Of a stretch of 64,000 nucleotides of DNA, positions 457 through 16,608 are shown piece after piece. The first letter of the stretch is position 1. Each line of letters opens with the position of its first letter. The translations under genes and the position numbers were made by a program. A model generated the notes under the pieces. It was not told the DNA's origin and made no database searches. It worked only from the letters and a program-made list of their open reading frames with translations. The stretch is from Curvularia clavata (Eukaryota). Location: positions 1,364,001-1,428,000 of the forward strand of contig CP089279.1 of assembly GCA_023920165.1 (NCBI GenBank), written 5' to 3'.

Positions 457-1895
457 CTATGAGCTGATGCTTGGTCCCGAGTCGAATGAGTTGGAATCTC
501 TCGGCTTCTCTTCCTCATCTCCAATCACAAAAGGATCAAACTCTTCGCCTTTCACATGCCCATAGCCCTTCCCCGTGTTGTTGCGCTTCGCAAAGATCAT
601 AGTGCCTATCGCCAACATCTCGAAGAGAACGATCGCTGCCCACAGCAAACGGAAGCTACTGCTTTTCTTCCCGTGTAATAGTCCTAGGAAGACGTTTCCG
701 TTGAGAGCTACAAAAAGTGTTCGGCCAAGATAGATATGAGCCAAGGAAGATGTAGTACGCTCCCCATACTTGACGTAATTGATGTGATGTTTGTAGCCAA
801 AGATAATTTGAATAGGCACTCCGATAGCGATCGCAAGACCGATTAACTTGTGTATCGAGGTGAAAGTCTCAATCTTTGTAGTGTTAGCTGAGTATGACCA
901 CTTTTATGGATTGAAATTGCATACCTGAAATATATGTGTGCTTTTCAAAATACCGATGAGACAACCAATCAGCAACCCGAGAGCAGAGAGAGCTTGCACG
1001 ACCCAATGACTGTGAAATGCCAACTTGAAGCCGCTGCGGATCAATAAGATTCCAAGGCAGTTAAGGATGACTGAAAAAGATAATAACAATCCGTGCGCGT
1101 CCCACATGTTGAAAGACTTTGGAAAGGCTGGTCTATTGAGTCCAGAAAACTCTATAGCGTGAATCGAAGAACGATCTGCAGTTACTGTTGGAAACTCCTC
1201 AATCTGATTCGTGGAAAGTGCCTCGGCCATATTGACCGATTTAAGGCCTGTAGTAGAGTCATGAAAGTCTGTTCTAAGATAGAGGGAGTAATAGCTTACC
1301 GTAATCTGTATGCATATCCAGACGCAAACTTGGGTCGCCAGTATTGGTCTTCTGTGCATAGCTGCTCGCGAACAGCCATGGCTGCTTTTCGCTTGTTGCG
1401 TTTAGTGGACCAAGTCCGACCGTTTCACATGAGTAGCAAATGGCCTGTAGCACATGAAATCCGTTTTGATCGATTTTCGTGCTGTGAACATGAACTTGTC
1501 TCTGGTTCTTGAGTGGATGGGGAGGATGGTGCTCGATGGTCGACCGCAATGACAACATCATGTCTGCGATATGTTAGCATACCATCGAAGACGGATCTGG
1601 GTATTGAGCCCTCACCACCTTCATATTCTCCTGGCCATAGCACAAACATCAAAGCTCGATCCATATTGTCTCCCACGGCAAAAGCTGCCCAGCCGCTGCC
1701 TTCATGAAATTTGACGGAAAATGTCATGAAAAGATCATGCCCCCTTGCGTGCTGCGACTTTACAGTTTTTACAGCCAGACATGCATCCGAGTGCAGTGCT
1801 GGTTCGATATGACATATCTGTACTGGTTCTGACCCTCGGCAAATATGAATTACAAAAAAGAGCAATATGAGGAAGACATTAGCTTGTTTCATCAT
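457..1895 (-). CDS. Signal peptide + CDH-like heme-b cytochrome (DOMON/AA8-type) domain fused to a cytochrome b561 transmembrane domain
   Basis: Spliced from ORFs 1425-1955, 1274-1561, 904-1359 and 457-819 with GT-AG introns 1564-1615, 1248-1299 and 874-924. Hydrophobic leader MMKQANVFLILLFFVIHICRG; an upstream in-frame ATG also exists at 1955. CDH-cytochrome motifs GWAAFAVGDNMDRALMF (Met ligand), CYSC and LDMHTDYG (His ligand). Four b561 histidines on TM helices: DAHGLL, SHWVVQ, SIHKLIG, LAHIYLGR. Confidence 0.85.
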
Positions 1896-2203
1896 TGCGT
1901 ATGATTGTTGTACTGAAAGAAGATTCTGAGCTGCGCTTTCTCTTTTGGAAGCCATATGGAATAATGCAGGTAAAGTCTCGGCTCCAGTTGTTGGAGCTAA
2001 CTCGAAATGGTAACTTGTGGTCCTGTAGTCAGCGTCTTACGAAGTGACTAGGGCTGACTATATCACAACAATTTGCGCGCGCATGCAATGACAATAGAGA
2101 CTCAATTCTGAGTGCCCATTTCCGAATTCTGCTCTTGAAAAACAGTCTTCTGAACACTCATATACACCCACACAACTTCTAGGCTTTCGGATCCCTTTTC
2201 GCA

Positions 2204-3001
2204 ATGGTGTCGTCTTCTTTGCCTAAATCTGTTCCGTTCGCAGCACGCCAACGCAAAGTTCACATGTCTCTAAATTACCCAAGTTTCGTCAGAAGACCTA
2301 TCACGGTGGTAGCAACTACTGTCCGGTCCCTTTTCGTACGCCCGACAACGTACCCGAACTTCACATCATCCTCTACTTCAGACGAAAGCGAAGACATACC
2401 TACCCGGCTCAACAAAAACGAATTGAACGTAACAACTAGAGTCAGGCGCCTCCAGTATTCGGTACTGCCCTATTTTCTGAATGTTTTGCTGGCAGTGGGG
2501 CTCACAATTATTGTGGGATTTATCTTCCGTCCTTTTCCACCGCATGGGCCTAAGATGAAGACATTAAGCTGCGGATCTACCCCGGCTGAAGCGCGCAGCA
2601 ACGGTTGCACATACGATGTTTTGGGAAATATCTGGGTCCCCACTCCCTGTCTTGACACGGAAAACCTTGCCGACTTCAAGCGTATGGCTCCCTGGCTGGC
2701 ATACGACTCTGCCAACGCGACTCGTCAGCTCACAGAAGAAGAGATGTCGGAATACCTGATACCTGATGGCTATTGGACACCAGTACGGGAGCACATGATT
2801 CATTGTGCTCTGATGTGGAGAAGATTGCACAAGGGATTTGAGTTGGACTCAAAGTTGTTGGATAAGCACGTTCTTTCAATGCACCATACCGAGCATTGCA
2901 GCTTAACTTTGATGGAGCATCTTGATATGCCTACCTCTTTTCTAGATGAAATACGTACACGAACAGAGGCAGGGTATTCTAGTTGTCAGGTTCCTGCATA
3001 A
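2204..3001 (+). CDS. Membrane-anchored double-HxxHC protein 1 (DUF3328/UstYa- or PhomB-like putative copper oxidase)
   Basis: Intronless 265-aa ORF (alternative start 2264). One TM helix (YFLNVLLAVGLTIIVGFIF), motif CGSTPAEARSNGCTYDVLGNIWVPTPC, then HMIHC and HTEHC. Confidence 0.85.
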   Translation: MVSSSLPKSVPFAARQRKVHMSLNYPSFVRRPITVVATTVRSLFVRPTTYPNFTSSSTSDESEDIPTRLNKNELNVTTRVRRLQYSVLPYFLNVLLAVGLTIIVGFIFRPFPPHGPKMKTLSCGSTPAEARSNGCTYDVLGNIWVPTPCLDTENLADFKRMAPWLAYDSANATRQLTEEEMSEYLIPDGYWTPVREHMIHCALMWRRLHKGFELDSKLLDKHVLSMHHTEHCSLTLMEHLDMPTSFLDEIRTRTEAGYSSCQVPA

Positions 3002-3830: not shown

Positions 3831-5388
3831 ATGATGGATGCCGAAGCGCTCACGGAGTCGTCATCGAAGCAAGGGCATCGAAAGCTATCCACTGCATCAC
3901 TGGTGGCCATGACATGTGGAGTTGGGGGGTACGCCACACATTGCAGCAATAACATTGTTTGTTCAACTAATCTAATTATGCAGACTACAAGTTCTTTGGT
4001 CCACAATCTTTTCCCATGGTTCATCCTACCTTTTCTCTCTCGGAATATCCGCAACCCAGTCATCGCTCGTATGGGCAGTTGCGCCAATTTGTGGCTCGGT
4101 CATTCAACCTGTTATCGGTGTCATCAGTGATCTTTCGCATATTTCATGGGGCCGACGGCGACCATTCATCATTGGAGGAGTAGTTTCGATCACTTTCGCC
4201 GCCACAGCATTAGCCTGGGCTGAAACCGTTTCAACAGTTTTTTGCACACTGTTTGACATCAGTAACACCGAAGGCCAGTGGGGAACCGTCACACGTTTTG
4301 TCGCTATCATGTCAATTATCCTTCTCAACGTTTCGATTCAGCCTCTTCAATTGGGCCTTCGCTCATTGATTGTCGACATCTGTCCGCAGGAACAACAAGC
4401 TATGGCAAGCACATGGGCAAGTCGGTTTGCTGGTGTGGGAAACATCATTGGCTATGTCCTTGGGTCCGTACCGCTTCCTTGGATATACAGCGATTATGAG
4501 GCCATGCGTTTCCGGTATATGGCTTACTGCGCTATCCTCGCGCTCATCACCACATCGCTATTCAATTGCTATTATAATGAGGAGCAAGATCCACGCATGT
4601 CAATGTACGAGCCAGAAGATGAGCGACAAACCTATCGTATCGTCCAGTACATTGCAGATAGCTTCTTGCAGACTTCAAAGAGGGTACGACGCGTCTTTCT
4701 CGTTCAATTTTTCTCCTGGACTGGGTGGTTCGGATTTCTGTTCTACAGTACAAGCTTTGTTGGAAAGCTCTATGTCGACGAACAGGTAAAAAATGAGGTT
4801 ACAATAGGCCCATCACTCAAAGACCACGGAATGATGCTAGGCGCCAGAGCAAGCTTGCTTTTCGCCATTGTGGCATTAGCAACAAACATCGTGTTGCCCA
4901 ACCTCTCCCAAATAGGGAGATCGGTGATAGCAATGGCCAAACCTCATAGGAGAAGAGGGCATAACTCCTCCCCTCATTTGAGTATCATCTGGGGCTTTGG
5001 CCAAGTGGTTTATGTGATAAGTGTTTTGTCCACGACTGTAGTGTCTTCAAGCACAACAGGGACGTTCTTGGTCGCCATTGCAGGGTTTTCATGGGGCGTC
5101 ACTCAGTGGGTACCTTTTGCCATAATTGGAGAGGAAACAGCAAGGCGATGCATTAACGATGAATCCTCTAAGGAAGAAAAAGATGATTTATGGAGTATGG
5201 CACAGGGCGGCAGAATCATGGGTTTGCACAACGCTGCCATATCCGTACCGCAGATCATTGCTGCACTGATCAGTACTGCGATTTTCTGGACTGCACAAAA
5301 GCTGAATAATGAGAATGCTATAGTGTGGGTGATAGGTTGGACGGGCATTCCTGGAGCAGTAGCTGCGTGGCTTGCTTTTATGATGTAG
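3831..5388 (+). CDS. MFS transporter, SUT1/SLC45 (GPH; sucrose/alpha-glucoside permease-like)
   Basis: Exon 1 3831-3928, intron 3929-3983, then LQVLWS...VIQPVIGVISDLSHISWGRRRPFI running into ORF 4309-5388. Motifs LRSLIVD, VQFFSWTGWFGFLFYST, WVPFAIIG and GLHNAAISVPQIIA are typical of SUT1/SLC45. Confidence 0.88.
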
Positions 5389-5475: not shown

Positions 5476-6474
5476 TTACGACTTGAATTCCATGTCAGCG
5501 CCAGCTCGTATTAGCATGTCCACAATCTCCACAAAGTCATGCTCTATTGCTACATGCAACGGCGTCTCTCCTGCCGCATTGATAGCATTGACATCCACGC
5601 AATGCAACAAAGCAAATGAAACCAAGGACACGTGGCCAAACTGCGCAGCGAGATGTAAAATATTGTTTCCGTAATCGTCTATAATGTAGACGTCTGCTCC
5701 GTTCTCAACGAGAAGCTTCGCAATGCTATCGCGACCCCTTATCACAGCTTTCTGTAAAGCGTTTAGACTTGAAGAATGTGAGGAAGAAGTGGATGTCGAT
5801 GACGGAGCCGTGGATTGAGCCTAGTTGAGACCCTGTTAGTAACCCCGCACGAGCAACACTGAAGCGAAAAGATTGTAGTGGACATACAAACATGAGGATC
5901 TCGTTATCTAAATCTGTTAGGGGCGTTGCTAGATCAAATACAGTAGTGGTTTCGCTCTTTTGTTGCGAAACGATGTTGCCCTTGTCCTGATTTGACATTG
6001 ATGATACATCTTCTATTTCTTCTGTGCTGCTGAACAGGAAAGATTGAGCAGAAGATTCATCGGATGATCTTGCCGCTGGGACATGGATTGGCTCCAAACT
6101 AGGCAATTTTGCATTCGGAGCCGCAAGAACGACTGAATCTCGGCGGGTCTGCTTGAGCTGTCTTGAATCTTTAGGCGGTGTTTGACAGGACTGCTGTTTA
6201 TCTTTGGGTGTTGATGGATTTTCCGATAAGCTTCGATTGAACACTTCCAATTGCTGCAGTCGGCGCTTGATGTTACGGCCTAAGAGATTAGTCCTACATG
6301 AAGTATACTTGGAGTTAGTTACTCACGATAGTTGCGCTGCGCAATTCGATTTTGCACTCTTCGTCGTTCATTGGCATCGGTCAATATCCTCCAATCCTCG
6401 TCTTCCTCTTGCCGCGCCATGACTTCTTGGATTTCTTTTGATGGCATTGAAATCTGGTGATATTTGCGGCTCAT
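5476..6474 (-). CDS. bZIP basic region + C-terminal ankyrin repeat transcription factor (bANK, ToxE-like architecture)
   Basis: Exon 1 6474-6327 encodes EDWRILTDANERRRVQNRIAQRNY. Intron 6280-6326 joins it to RRNIKRRLQQLE. A second intron (~5821-5887) joins to ankyrin repeats ALQKAVIRGRDSIAKLLVENGAD, GNNILHLAAQFGH and GETPLHVAIEH. Confidence 0.88.
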
Positions 6475-7260: not shown

Positions 7261-7986
7261 ATGCCTGGGTTGTTTCATTCACCAAAGCCTAGTGATAGGA
7301 TACTACCGCGCAATGACAATGGTCGCCAAAAATTACTTCCACAAGACTTGGAAAACCAAGACATATTACTTGAAAAGACTTTTTTAGAGTCGCTGGGGCC
7401 CAAATTCCACCGGAGCATAGCACACATCAACGCAGCAGTTGTGGCCCTGTTCCTTTTTACAGTCGTTGCTGGATCGCTCGCATGGCTAGGCGTATCTGCG
7501 ACGCTGCGGACCGACGATGCACCGAAATCATCGAAGCTATACACCGATTGCGGCAGCAATCACTCAACAGCCATCGCAGCTGGCTGTGTATACGATATCG
7601 TTGCCCCCCAATGGACTCCACCAGAATGCTACAATGCACCCCTGTCCGAAGAGTATGCCAGAAAGATTCCGAAACCTATGTTTTTCCGCTGGCCGAACCT
7701 CACAGAGCCAATACCGGAAGATCCATTGGAGATTTCACGACATGACACAATCTGGACATTTGATGCATATCATACCATGCACTGCGTATATATTCTTGAG
7801 CTTGCAGCATTGGCAGCAGGGATGGCTTCTTCTGGGCAGCAAGATGTTTTCTTGAACCACATTGCGGCAAATTCTAAGCACACAAAGCACTGCACCGAGC
7901 TGCTTTCTGGCAATAACTCCTCTCCAGGCCCTACGGAAATTCATCGTCCTGGAGCTGCGCTTCGCTGCAAGAGACTGGAAACTTAA
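7261..7986 (+). CDS. Membrane-anchored double-HxxHC protein 2 (DUF3328/UstYa- or PhomB-like)
   Basis: Intronless 241 aa. TM helix AAVVALFLFTVVAGSLAWLGV; motif CGSNHSTAIAAGCVYDIVAPQWTPPEC; HTMHC and HTKHC. Confidence 0.85.
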   Translation: MPGLFHSPKPSDRILPRNDNGRQKLLPQDLENQDILLEKTFLESLGPKFHRSIAHINAAVVALFLFTVVAGSLAWLGVSATLRTDDAPKSSKLYTDCGSNHSTAIAAGCVYDIVAPQWTPPECYNAPLSEEYARKIPKPMFFRWPNLTEPIPEDPLEISRHDTIWTFDAYHTMHCVYILELAALAAGMASSGQQDVFLNHIAANSKHTKHCTELLSGNNSSPGPTEIHRPGAALRCKRLET

Positions 7987-9753: not shown

Positions 9754-10458
9754 ATGATGGGTTCCTTCTTGACCAAGTCTTCACGACACGACAGTGGAAA
9801 AACATACATCGCCATACCCAACCCTGAGTCTGGCAACCCGTCGGATCTTCGCAGCAGAGAGAGGCACAGGCGCCTACCAACCACTGTTGTCGTAGTATCT
9901 GTTACCGCTGTTCTGATACTGCTTGTTCCAGTCTCCTACTTCCTTTTTGCCACAAGCATGCAAAGTAGCGCATTCAATCACACTACCCTGCGCCACCAGC
10001 GTGATGATAAAGGCACATTTATAGCCTGTCCAGAAGACCCTGAATCAGCACGGAAATCAGGCTGTTCTTTTGATCTTCTCGCCAACGGTTGGGTCCCCGA
10101 CCCGTGCTTCGACGCGGAAATGCACCACGACTTTGTTGACGGCAAGGACTACGGCTTCTTCGAGGATCGAAACGGGAAGCATCGAGTGCATCAAGACACG
10201 GTTATGGAGGGTGATAATAGCCGGTACCCACATGGGCTCTGGGTGACGTTCGAAGAACACCACACTCACTGTCGTTACCTGGTCAATGGATCCATCAGAG
10301 CTGTCTCGCGACTCCACGCACCTTTCCTCGACGTGTACCTGGATCGGGATCACATGATCCATTGTTATGGAGTTCTTGGAGAAAATCGAGCTTCGTCTCA
10401 TATTGAGACATATGTCAAGGCGTTCTTTGAATCTCGCAAATGTTACCTTCGTGATTGA
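9754..10458 (+). CDS. Membrane-anchored double-HxxHC protein 3 (DUF3328/UstYa- or PhomB-like)
   Basis: Intronless 234 aa. TM helix VVVVSVTAVLILLVPVSYFLFA; motif CPEDPESARKSGCSFDLLANGWVPDPC; HHTHC and HMIHC. Confidence 0.85.
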   Translation: MMGSFLTKSSRHDSGKTYIAIPNPESGNPSDLRSRERHRRLPTTVVVVSVTAVLILLVPVSYFLFATSMQSSAFNHTTLRHQRDDKGTFIACPEDPESARKSGCSFDLLANGWVPDPCFDAEMHHDFVDGKDYGFFEDRNGKHRVHQDTVMEGDNSRYPHGLWVTFEEHHTHCRYLVNGSIRAVSRLHAPFLDVYLDRDHMIHCYGVLGENRASSHIETYVKAFFESRKCYLRD

Positions 10459-11014: not shown

Positions 11015-13370
11015 TTATGTCAAGTCTATTACGTCTTTTCCTCCAATAAGCCAGCACGACATGTCCCCCGTGGTCATTACGAAACCTAGTCGTGAGAAAG
11101 TGCCATCGGGATTCTTCAAGACCAGGAGACCTCTAAGGTCTAGAGCTTTGGCAATCGCTAGCACGAAGAGCCCCTCTGTTTCTACGTCAACATCTCGATC
11201 CAGCATGGCGAGACAAGTCCGTATCTGGTAGTCTCCGCTGCCATCGTCGTTGATGAAGACTATGTAGCCTCCACTATGTTGTGGACTGTGCGTAAGGCTA
11301 ACGGGGGTTAGAATACCGCGAAGTTTGAGGACTCCTTCAGCGACAGCGCCAAAAACACTGTCCGAGCTTCCTCGAGTGATGTCGACTTCGAGACATTCTG
11401 CACATAATACGTTGCCGGGTTCCGATTGAAGGTGAACGGGTTTACTAACAGCAGCCCATGACCAGGACGGTGCTGGTAGCTTGTCGTTAATGCCGAGGGC
11501 TGGTTCGCAGTCCCGGACATACCAAAGTAATGTCAAAGGTAGTGACGAACGCCACAGACCTGCAACCTGTAGAATTACTTAAGAGTCAGCTTGGTGATAG
11601 CTTGATGTAAATGCCGGTATGAGGCGTAAGGTTGTGAGCGTGTTAGAGTTTGTGAGTGTGTAGAGTTGGATAAATACCAGGACTTACGTATACATCGTTG
11701 AGACCATCCGCCCAGCGTTGTGCTATGCCGGCCAAAGCGGGTAGTCGATCTCTGGGGTAGCGCAACGTGCGTTTTGTGAAATCATTGATCAAGTTAGCCC
11801 AACCGCTCGACCAGAATTCTCTATCTGTGTTAAATTGGATACTAGTCGACCGACGAGAAAGAGGTTTATATCTCTCACGGAAAGATGAAACGTCGGTGTC
11901 ATTTAAACAAGCCCAGGTGATTTCTGTCGCACGAAAGGAAATGGTTCGTCGAGCTAACAGGTGCTCCTGAAAAGTCCAACCGCGGTTTGAAAGCGGTTCC
12001 TGATGCTCTGCAAATACAGAGGACTCCTGCCCAGCGAGATGCCCAGCGAGAATAATCTTATCACTTTCCGTTGATTGTCTCCTGCGCAACTCGAGATTAA
12101 CATTTCCCCCCATTTCGAGAACCCAGAGAGCATCATGTTGGTATATTGTGGTATCAAAATTCAAAAATCCTTCATTACCACGGAGGCGCGTGAAGCTTCG
12201 ATGGTAATGGTGGCATTCTCGAAGATTCGACCCATCTGATCTATCTCGTGATTTTTATCCGCGCTATTGTCTTGTATGATGCACAATGCGTCAATCCAAA
12301 GATGCGGAATTTCAAGTCCTTCAGCTACGATAATGGCGTCTTGAATAGTCTGTGGCAAGCTGAAAACATCAATGCCTTGTTTGTACTGTTGTAGGACAGC
12401 ATTAGTTAGCCAACCAGGCTGTTCGGCAACGCCCCAGCAGTAGGACAAAGCAGCATATGAAGACAGCGGATCCCTTGGCTCGATCAGTCGCACTTTTTTC
12501 GCGGTTTCATTGGAACGAATCTCGAGGACTCGAGTAGGTATCTGTTTACATAAAGGTCAGTGGTGATCTATTGGCGCAACAAGAGACAATCACTGCTGAT
12601 CATCGTTTCAAGTAGCTTTTTGACATGGGTAGCTGTTCAGTGACACAACGTACAAAAGAGCTAGTGCTCTGCGCACAGTTGATGTGCTCCTTTGCACAAG
12701 TGTGTAGCCAGGCACGTGTCATATTTAATACAGCTTCCAGCGAAGAGCTTCTGTGTAGAAGATGGCTTTGTCCTAGTATGGGTAATCAGCCAAGCCAACG
12801 ATTATATACCGCCAGATACTTACTAGAGGGTACCCACACTGAGAATTCCCGCTTGGAAAGCAAAGGAAATTCTAGCATTTCAATCCAAAGAGTGGAATCA
12901 TCGGAATCATCGGAATCATCGATATCATCGGAATCATTGAAATACTTATCACTAAGCTTGAACATCTCCAAACAAGCGATTCCATCCCCAAAATCAAATG
13001 ATACGAAGTATTCTGTCCAGAACTGTCTGTCGCCGTACAGCTTATGAAACCCTTCAATTATTGTCTGACAAAACGAACAACCTGTAGATACTCCATGTTG
13101 CAGGTCATCGCCATTGAACCGTAGGATTCGAGAATATATATAGTGCTTGTCTCTTATAGCATCTAAAAGTTTACTGTAATTTGGGTTCTGAAGCTCTTCC
13201 ATTGGATCCCGCACGCGCTCATCATGTTGAAGAAGCCAGAGCGCAATGTCTCGAAAGTACTGCTCCTGCTCCGCGGTTGTCGGTTCGCGAAATCTTTCGG
13301 GCGGCGGCGGAAACGGCGTGGAGGCGTGATGACGACAGGTAATAGATGGTATCAATGGAAGTTGAGTCAT
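11015..13370 (-). pseudogene. HET-domain (heterokaryon incompatibility) protein gene with an apparent 1-bp frameshift
   Basis: Motifs in order: WLHTCAKEHINC, IPTRVL, YAALSYCWG, LPQTIQDAI, LWIDALCIIQD, QMGRIFENA, PLSNRGWTFQE, DRLPALAGIA, Y/VAGLW, APSWSWA. Three GT-AG introns splice in frame, but the frame shifts at ~12180: GNEGFL lies in another frame and a premature TGA occurs at 12161-12163. Confidence 0.8.
12895..12939. repeat. 9-bp coding tandem repeat (DDSDDIDDSDDSDDS) in the HET gene
   Basis: Repeated tcatcggaa/tcatcgata units. Confidence 0.75.
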
Positions 13371-16172: not shown

Positions 16173-16469
16173 TTATGTCTGCTTAGCACGGCAGCTGCTG
16201 TCACTGCCAGTTGCTCCAGCGAGCTGACACCATTGTCGCCAGCTGCAGTTGCTGTGTCTGTAATCGCCCTGCCCCTGGCATTCGCGTGCACCATCCGATT
16301 TAGGACCTGGGTTGACCATGGCACCATTGGAACCGAGGCCTCTGCAAACAGCCTCCGTAACCCGGTCATTCGGTACGCCGTTAGAGTCGTAGCAATGGCA
16401 ATACTGGTAGGTAGCACATGCTTGTGCCGCAATGGGCAAAAAGACAAGAGCAAGGGCTGAGAACTTCAT
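16173..16469 (-). CDS. Small secreted cysteine-rich protein (98 aa, 8 Cys), effector-like
   Basis: Intronless ORF with signal peptide MKFSALALVFLPIAAQA, 8 Cys in the mature part and a TATA element ~150 bp upstream. Confidence 0.85.
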   Translation of the reverse strand: MKFSALALVFLPIAAQACATYQYCHCYDSNGVPNDRVTEAVCRGLGSNGAMVNPGPKSDGARECQGQGDYRHSNCSWRQWCQLAGATGSDSSCRAKQT

Positions 16470-16608
16470 TTCGAATGAGATATCCTTGAAAAGCTTGTTA
16501 GTAGAGAAGGGTTAAGGGGGAAAGCGGGCATACTTGAAGGGTGTTTGAGTTGATGGTCGGTTTGGAATTGATCAGTGGCGATGGAGTTATCACTGAAGGA
16601 GAAGCAAT

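Follow-up and report, generated by a model that had tools for sequence, protein, structure and literature searches.

Cytochrome b561 of chromaffin granules supplies the copper monooxygenases dopamine beta-hydroxylase and PHM, and the cytochrome domain of cellobiose dehydrogenase (CDH) reduces the copper of lytic polysaccharide monooxygenases (LPMOs). Similar parts are combined otherwise, with a parallel logic, in a gene pair of Curvularia clavata that occupies positions 457 to 3001 of a 64,000-nucleotide stretch of contig CP089279.1 (positions 1,364,001 to 1,428,000), hereafter the window. There, the gene for a fusion of a CDH-type cytochrome with cytochrome b561, here called the haem protein, lies head-to-head with the gene for a predicted copper oxidase, here called oxidase 1. 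The novelty is that a CDH-cyt/b561 gene is conservedly coupled to a gene resembling the fungal DUF3328 family, and it extends to the resulting proposal that the haem protein may be the electron donor of its neighbor.

Many peptide toxins and drug leads of fungi owe key oxidative steps (cyclisation, hydroxylation, and halogenation) to the DUF3328/UstYa enzymes. One of them, CctR, was described in 2025 as a lumenal binuclear copper enzyme that requires electron input, and its authors postulate an as yet unidentified accessory protein, electron-transferring or Cu(I)-delivering, "similar to the role of P450 reductase" (PMC12435403). As far as the accessible part of that paper goes, this bears out the premise of a preliminary description of the present locus, that the lumenal copper enzymes of DUF3328 need electrons and that no donor has been named; CctR is placed there in the membranes of the Golgi, endosome, and vacuole (PMC12435403). 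For the other partner, one functionally studied protein of the same architecture was found, Imp1 (MGG_08120) of Magnaporthe oryzae, which is described as a CDH-cyt domain followed, toward the C terminus, by a b561/ferric-reductase membrane domain and which localises to vacuoles and to the plasma membrane of invasive hyphae (PMC6281275). The gene pair described here is a concrete candidate for the postulated accessory protein and its client. If the proposal is true, it would give a handle to reconstitute DUF3328-type enzymes both in vitro and in other host organisms, and a first biochemical role for a large fungal family of membrane cytochromes.

The window is fungal, with short GT..AG introns and with its closest named proteins in Alternaria and other Pleosporales. 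The haem-protein gene has 4 exons (Table 1), and all 3 of its introns are supported by spliced RNA-derived contigs. The spliced contigs come from X1 and X3 (a root metatranscriptome), public sequencing runs whose contigs were aligned to the region, and contigs from one set of three runs (X1, X3, and X4) cover both genes of the pair. The same 3 junctions are spliced in annotated orthologs from Alternaria panax, A. alternata, and Periconia macrospinosa (P0001, P0004, and P0006), and the annotated start of the orthologs corresponds to window position 1895, not 1955. One X3 contig (1447-1698) runs through intron 1 without a splice, reflecting either a retained intron or carried-over DNA.

From the N terminus, the haem protein consists of a hydrophobic signal-like segment, a beta-rich haem b domain of CDH type (a DOMON domain), and a five-helix cytochrome b561. 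Pfam finds CDH-cyt (PF16010) in the window exon pieces with E = 1.9e-5 and 3.6e-4 (24.9 and 20.7 bits), scores that are weak because an intron splits the domain, and cytochrome b561 (PF03188) in exon 4 with 23.8 bits against a cut-off of 23. The ortholog P0004, 73% identical to the haem protein over exon 4, scores 57.2 bits for CDH-cyt, where the gathering score is 27, and 25.4 bits for b561, also above threshold. By sequence, the haem protein adds one more member to the already known CYBDOM architecture, with haem binding and electron transfer predicted.

A profile built from 42 sequences of the family and searched against the Protein Data Bank (PDB) matches the Phanerochaete CDH cytochrome, PDB ID: 1d7b, with E = 6.3e-15, and it also matches the b561 structures 4o6y (E = 5.7e-8) and 5zle (E = 1.1e-7). 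A single-sequence phmmer search with P0004 is weaker than the profile, its sole PDB match being 4qi3 with E = 0.27. The residues of 1d7b that align with Met78 and His178 of the haem protein are M65 and H163, the haem ligands of the Phanerochaete cytochrome, and in the M65H mutant entry 1pl3 a His stands in the column of the family's invariant Met. The 4 candidate b561 ligands each stand at the start of one helix, TM1 to TM4; across the 42 sequences, H232, H261, and H334 (alignment numbering) are invariant and H296 is at least 90% conserved. An AlphaFold2 model of P0004, made with 42 relatives, has a predicted local distance difference test (pLDDT) score of 85.6 and 5 membrane helices. Foldseek aligns it with the CDH cytochromes 1pl3, 1d7c, and 1d7b at E of about 5e-8 and template modeling (TM) scores of 0.70-0.72 on the target, with the cytochrome domain of pyranose dehydrogenase, 6jt6, and more weakly with 4zel, a DOMON domain from dopamine beta-hydroxylase (E = 5e-4); the membrane part aligns with Arabidopsis cytochrome b561, 4o6y and 4o7g, with probability 1.0. 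The fusion claimed in the preliminary description is therefore real on the grounds of gene model, Pfam, fold matches, and spliced contigs, and the claim that it keeps the Met/His ligands and all 4 b561 histidines agrees with the 42-sequence profile and the 1d7b alignment.

The signal peptide, whose cleavage site was placed by eye, would set the DOMON domain outside the cytosol, so H233 (helix 1) and H297 (helix 3) should be near the outer face, and H262 (helix 2) and H335 (helix 4) near the cytosol, each pair at the helix ends on that side. That layout is the two-haem arrangement of b561. The DOMON domain carries a conserved NAT sequon, which together with the signal peptide supports the lumenal (N-out) placement proposed for it earlier.

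A haem domain of the CDH (AA8-like) type, as the profile match to 1d7b makes it, might be a donor for some other secreted copper enzyme such as an LPMO, which is what the CDH cytochrome domain is. We regard that as very unlikely: among the ORFs (open reading frames) scanned in the window and in L002, one of two Alternaria-like metagenome contigs (L001 and L002) used for comparison, there is no LPMO-like or other secreted oxidase family, and no literature link of b561 with LPMO in fungi was found.

The ORF of oxidase 1 opens with an in-frame ATG at 2204. This first Met is missing in 4 of 4 related contigs and the orthologs have 245 amino acids (aa), starting at the second Met, therefore 2264 rather than 2204 is the likely start as judged by sequence comparison. 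The mRNA includes 2204 as well, the oxidase contigs beginning at 2085-2182. The AlphaFold2 model of oxidase 1 has pLDDT 76 overall and about 90 in the C-terminal domain, with a disordered N terminus (residues 1-10 and 25-61 below 50) and with one HxxHC on each of two helices, 174-193 and 206-219, at pLDDT of about 90. Across 20 sequences, H177, C181, H208, H211, and C212 are invariant, and H180 is at least 90% conserved. The sole exception at H180 is a Tyr, in a metagenome ortholog (P0008) that has HMIYC in place of HMIHC. The C-terminal domain also has 6 cysteines invariant in the 20 sequences and a conserved NAT sequon, which fit a lumenal placement, that is, the same side as the DOMON domain. 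The charges beside the membrane helix are ambiguous, and the orientation is drawn from the cysteines and the sequon.

Oxidase 1 is head-to-head with the haem protein in 4 of 4 related metagenome loci, which were retrieved with a narrow haem-protein alignment and are all close, Alternaria-like relatives and mutually non-independent. In annotated genomes, the two have neighboring locus tags in A. panax (G6011_04369/04368) and in three A. tenuissima assemblies (AA0119_g9613/9612, AA0118_g8716/8717, and AA0116_g12252/12251), and consecutive accessions in further Alternaria assemblies (OAG17159/8, KAH6862696/5, RYN26232/3, RYN54498/7, and RYN72141/2). The Periconia haem protein and oxidase, 58% and 53% identical to those of the window, lie on one contig of 193,056 bp and differ by three in accession number, and four further lineages have fragments of both genes from equal-sized contigs (8454, 16622, 5937, and 207533 bp). 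Linkage evidence thus exists in 7 of 22 oxidase-family clusters. The pairing is beyond chance and recurs in several lineages of Pleosporales. The head-to-head arrangement given in the preliminary description stands; its gap of about 250-310 bp between the start codons is probably too short, since starts at 1895 and 2264 give 368 bp (308 bp if 2204 is used), as compared with 372 bp in L001.

The spacer between the two genes is conserved unevenly. Its block 1994-2074 is 78% identical to L001, whereas the rest of the spacer is 52%, the introns 51-60%, and the exons 72-81%. The block contains an inverted repeat that L001 holds as well (L001 2518-2576) with the 19-nt spacing kept. With its conservation to exon level, the block looks as a regulatory element serving both sides of a divergent promoter would look, and the repeat could be the binding site of a dimeric regulator, or an element of a 5' untranslated region. 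The arm core TAGTCAGC alone is not rare, with 4 matches in the window against 1.84 expected, and only the conserved paired arrangement is notable. A 44-nt GT..AG intron candidate (2040-1997) overlaps the repeat. A scan of the spacer for copper- and iron-regulator motifs gave two candidate sites, both rejected: a Mac1-like site in the spacer is absent from the Alternaria-like contigs, and an Ace1/Cuf1-like match overlapping the palindrome has a pattern too degenerate to count. Spacer positions 1902-2084 are uncovered by X1, X3, and X4 contigs, which we do not count as a sign of a transcript-free promoter.

Table 1. Features of the gene pair and of the genes around it, in window coordinates.
Feature	Position	Strand	Description and basis
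CYBDOM-type haem-protein gene	457-1895	minus	4 exons, 427 aa; stop codon 457-459
Haem-protein exons	1895-1616, 1563-1300, 1247-925, 873-457	minus	from reading frames and splice signals
Haem-protein intron 1	1564-1615	minus	52 nt, GT..AG; joint 1563>1616 in X1 contig
Haem-protein intron 2	1248-1299	minus	52 nt, GT..AG; skipped in X3 contig, shorter side 24 nt
Haem-protein intron 3	874-924	minus	51 nt, GT..AG, ends AAG; joint 873>925 in X1 contig
Predicted signal peptide	1833-1895	minus	residues 1-21, ends ..ICRG before SEP; hydrophobic N terminus, same in orthologs
Met78, predicted DOMON axial haem ligand	1662-1664	minus	invariant in 42/42; aligns with M65 of 1d7b and M74 of 4qi3
His178, predicted second DOMON haem ligand	1310-1312	minus	at least 90% conserved (42 sequences); aligns with H163 of 1d7b
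Four predicted b561 haem-ligand histidines	736-1095	minus	H233 (1095-1093), H262 (1008-1006), H297 (852-850), H335 (738-736)
Divergent intergenic region	1896-2263	none	368 bp; 57% identical to L001 overall
Conserved inverted repeat	2012-2074	none	22-nt arms, 19-nt gap, core TAGTCAGC / GCTGACTA; mid-spacer
Oxidase 1	2264-3001	plus	245 aa, predicted type II membrane protein, HxxHC...HxxHC; contigs from X1, X3, X4
Oxidase 1 membrane helix	2465-2524	plus	residues 68-87, predicted model
Oxidase 1 HxxHC motifs	HMIHC 2792-2806, HTEHC 2885-2899	plus	in the ORF of oxidase 1
Sucrose-symporter-like MFS gene	3831-5388	plus	Pfam MFS_2 E = 2.3e-6; TIGR01301 E = 2.8e-29, far below cut-off
Two double-HxxHC paralogs	7261-7986, 9754-10458	plus	within 8 kb of oxidase 1

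The proposed mechanism has a path within the haem protein and a step beyond it. A cytosolic reductant would reduce the inner b561 haem (H262/H335), from which electrons would cross the membrane to the outer b561 haem (H233/H297) and pass to the DOMON haem b (M78/H178) on the lumenal or outer face. As a prediction from conserved ligands and folds, this path from cytosol to inner haem, outer haem, and DOMON haem is well founded. The acceptor would be the predicted di-copper center of the divergent DUF3328-like neighbor, with its HxxHC domain facing the DOMON side, so that the haem protein might play a part like that of P450 reductase for P450s, either by reducing the enzyme-bound copper directly or by making Cu(I) for the oxidase; the palindrome in the 368-bp common promoter might drive both genes together.

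The neighbor is nominated as the acceptor because of the conserved divergent pairing and the matching membrane side. It is further nominated because, according to the CctR paper, the enzymes of DUF3328 have to be supplied with electrons although they work in an oxidising lumen, and an accessory protein is expected for them (PMC12435403), and because the locations given for Imp1, vacuolar (PMC6281275), and for CctR, on Golgi, endosome, and vacuole (PMC12435403), are compatible with it. That the haem protein is the dedicated electron donor of oxidase 1 is plausible, a proposal that we advance tentatively and at somewhat less than even chances, and the earlier claim of an in vivo reductase is partly supported.

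Alternatively, the haem protein may be a metal reductase of general function, comparable to CRR/HYP1 of plants or FRRS1/SDR2 of animals, acting on Fe(III) or Cu(II) chelates at the outer or vacuolar face in metal homeostasis, with the neighbor helped indirectly (e.g., by Cu(I) supply) or not at all. The functionally studied CYBDOM proteins that were found are ferric reductases only (PMC10784552, PMC10784544), and the loss of Imp1 upsets metal and pH homeostasis (PMC6281275). The haem-protein family is also large and mostly unpaired as far as visible: it counts 648 representatives at E<=1e-3, of which 236 reach <=1e-10. Outside the ortholog group, the nearest full-length members, at 30-40% identity, belong to Leotiomycetes, Sordariomycetes, and lichen fungi. 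A general reductase leaves unexplained, however, why the ortholog group has a head-to-head HxxHC neighbor and a conserved spacer palindrome, and no metal transporter or ferroxidase gene is among the scanned ORFs. We consider it unlikely on the whole, while still a serious contender.

Several points weigh against the proposal that the haem protein is the donor of oxidase 1. To begin with the client, oxidase 1 scores below Pfam UstYa (PF11807), with E = 0.81 and 9.9 bits against a cut-off of 25, and 1 of the 20 aligned relatives matches UstYa at E<=0.01, namely the paralog at 7261. Because the threshold is missed, the copper chemistry of the oxidase is read from the motif and the model only. Foldseek of the oxidase 1 model against the PDB has no match at E<=0.001, and the Atlas puts oxidase 1 among unnamed Ascomycota clusters, with a UstYa cluster at a score of 0.84 as a lead only. 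Of the earlier description of the neighbor as a type II enzyme of the HxxHC kind, then, the motifs and layout hold up and membership in Pfam UstYa does not. We conclude, on the motif and the model, that oxidase 1 is probably a DUF3328-like predicted copper oxidase rather than a member of DUF3328/UstYa.

The setting adds to this side of the balance. No nonribosomal peptide synthetase, polyketide synthase, repeat-bearing precursor, or other biosynthetic core gene was found by Pfam on 45 window ORF pieces and 12 L002 ORFs, a scan that does not cover small genes. We know of no described DUF3328 cluster that contains a b561 gene, and no literature link of DUF3328/UstYa with b561 or DOMON was found among the matches listed in the literature search. 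Furthermore, ascorbate, NADH, or NADPH serves as the reductant of CctR in vitro (PMC12435403), and since small reductants suffice there, a protein donor is not strictly required.

The pairing itself can be read in a different way, as inherited gene order only, with a spacer common by descent within Pleosporales and with unrelated functions. Firm adjacency is all within one order, and mostly one genus, so much of the pattern can be put down to inheritance of gene order. Over the whole 2.7 kb, DNA identity between the window and the Alternaria-like contigs is 74%, and the major facilitator superfamily (MFS) gene is kept too, as in close relatives. Two species apparently have the oxidase alone: for the oxidases of Corynespora cassiicola (P0012) and Plenodomus lindquistii (P0014 and P0027), which make up 3 of the 22 clusters and come from annotated genomes, no haem-protein ortholog was found in a word-indexed search with 8000 candidates, a weak negative. 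A further 12 of the 22 clusters could not be judged for linkage, and three accession pairs from the same Alternaria clusters are 3, 33, and 192 apart, which tells us that accession order is not always positional. Gene order as the sole cause has to contend with linkage that lasts to 52-58% protein identity (Periconia and the lineage of the 207,533-bp contig) and with a spacer block conserved at exon level, and we think it improbable.

The proposal for a dedicated donor can also be extended, with much less confidence. CDH-cyt/b561 cytochromes might be the missing redox partners of DUF3328-type enzymes across fungi, in which case the Pleosporales pair would be a dedicated copy linked to its client, and Imp1-like housekeeping paralogs would serve the ustiloxin, phomopsin, and cyclochlorotine enzymes. 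We offer this as a speculation that is more probably wrong than right by a wide measure.

Directly downstream of oxidase 1, the MFS gene lies in the same orientation in L001 and L002 with about 75% aa identity. Its being kept in place means that part of the conservation is local synteny, and it may or may not be part of the module of the pair. The automatic name "MFS transporter" is attached to one Atlas cluster whose 225-aa proteins resemble the oxidase, perhaps as a result of fused gene models. Tandem Repeats Finder gives no tandem repeat within the gene pair or the MFS neighbor. Beyond it, the two paralogs are 25-30% identical to oxidase 1 and to each other, and of the two only 7261-7986 matches Pfam UstYa, weakly (E = 5e-4); no counterparts of them were seen in the Alternaria-like contigs, which extend only a short way on that side.

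The G+C fraction is 0.43-0.48 in the first 20 kb of the window versus 0.50-0.59 over 20000-64000. The HxxHC genes are in the low-GC part, as are genes for an ankyrin protein (5479-5820, E = 4e-21) and a HET-domain protein (12164-12556, E = 6e-25), and the remainder holds housekeeping genes for eIF2D/SUI1, a TPT transporter, Sey1, an Rpb2-type polymerase subunit, and tubulin. A small ORF at 16176-16511 on the minus strand, with a signal-like N terminus, many cysteines, and no Pfam match, could be secreted and effector-like.

Compared with CctR, oxidase 1 has a like disposition of a disordered N terminus, one membrane helix, and a predicted lumenal HxxHC(x)nHxxHC on two adjacent helices, by the description given of the former (PMC12435403). 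It is unlike the DUF3328/UstYa enzymes in its sub-threshold Pfam score and in having no assigned substrate or cluster. A further mark of that family is a disulfide-linked homodimer with two coppers in each monomer. Imp1, at 493 aa versus 427 for the haem protein, is likened to it by described architecture and not by sequence. In the portion of its paper available, Imp1 was studied for TOR-autophagy and V-ATPase assembly rather than for electron transfer, and no HxxHC partner is mentioned there (PMC6281275).

The haem protein resembles the CYBDOM proteins (Arabidopsis CRR and HYP1, and animal FRRS1/SDR2) in joining an outward DOMON domain with haem b to a b561 core with two haems, which would lead from the cytosol to the other face. 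It differs from the plant members in having a haem domain of the fungal CDH-cyt type (PF16010) and a conserved divergent pairing with an HxxHC protein; the plant proteins are described as ferric reductases, with no such partner in the accessible parts of the reports (PMC10784552, PMC10784544).

With the cytochromes of CDH (1d7b/1d7c and 4qi3) and pyranose dehydrogenase (6jt6), the likeness is in the beta-sandwich, at TM scores of 0.65-0.72 on target, and, for CDH, in common Met/His ligand columns. In those secreted proteins, the cytochrome receives its electrons from the flavin or pyrroloquinoline quinone dehydrogenase to which it is fused, whereas the domain of the haem protein would be fed through the membrane by b561. 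The chromaffin-granule system has the logic in common, cytosolic reducing power delivered to copper monooxygenases in a secretory compartment. There, ascorbate shuttles from b561 to the enzyme and the DOMON domain is on the enzyme; here, a haem-bearing DOMON domain would be on the b561, and the link between donor and enzyme is the gene pair.

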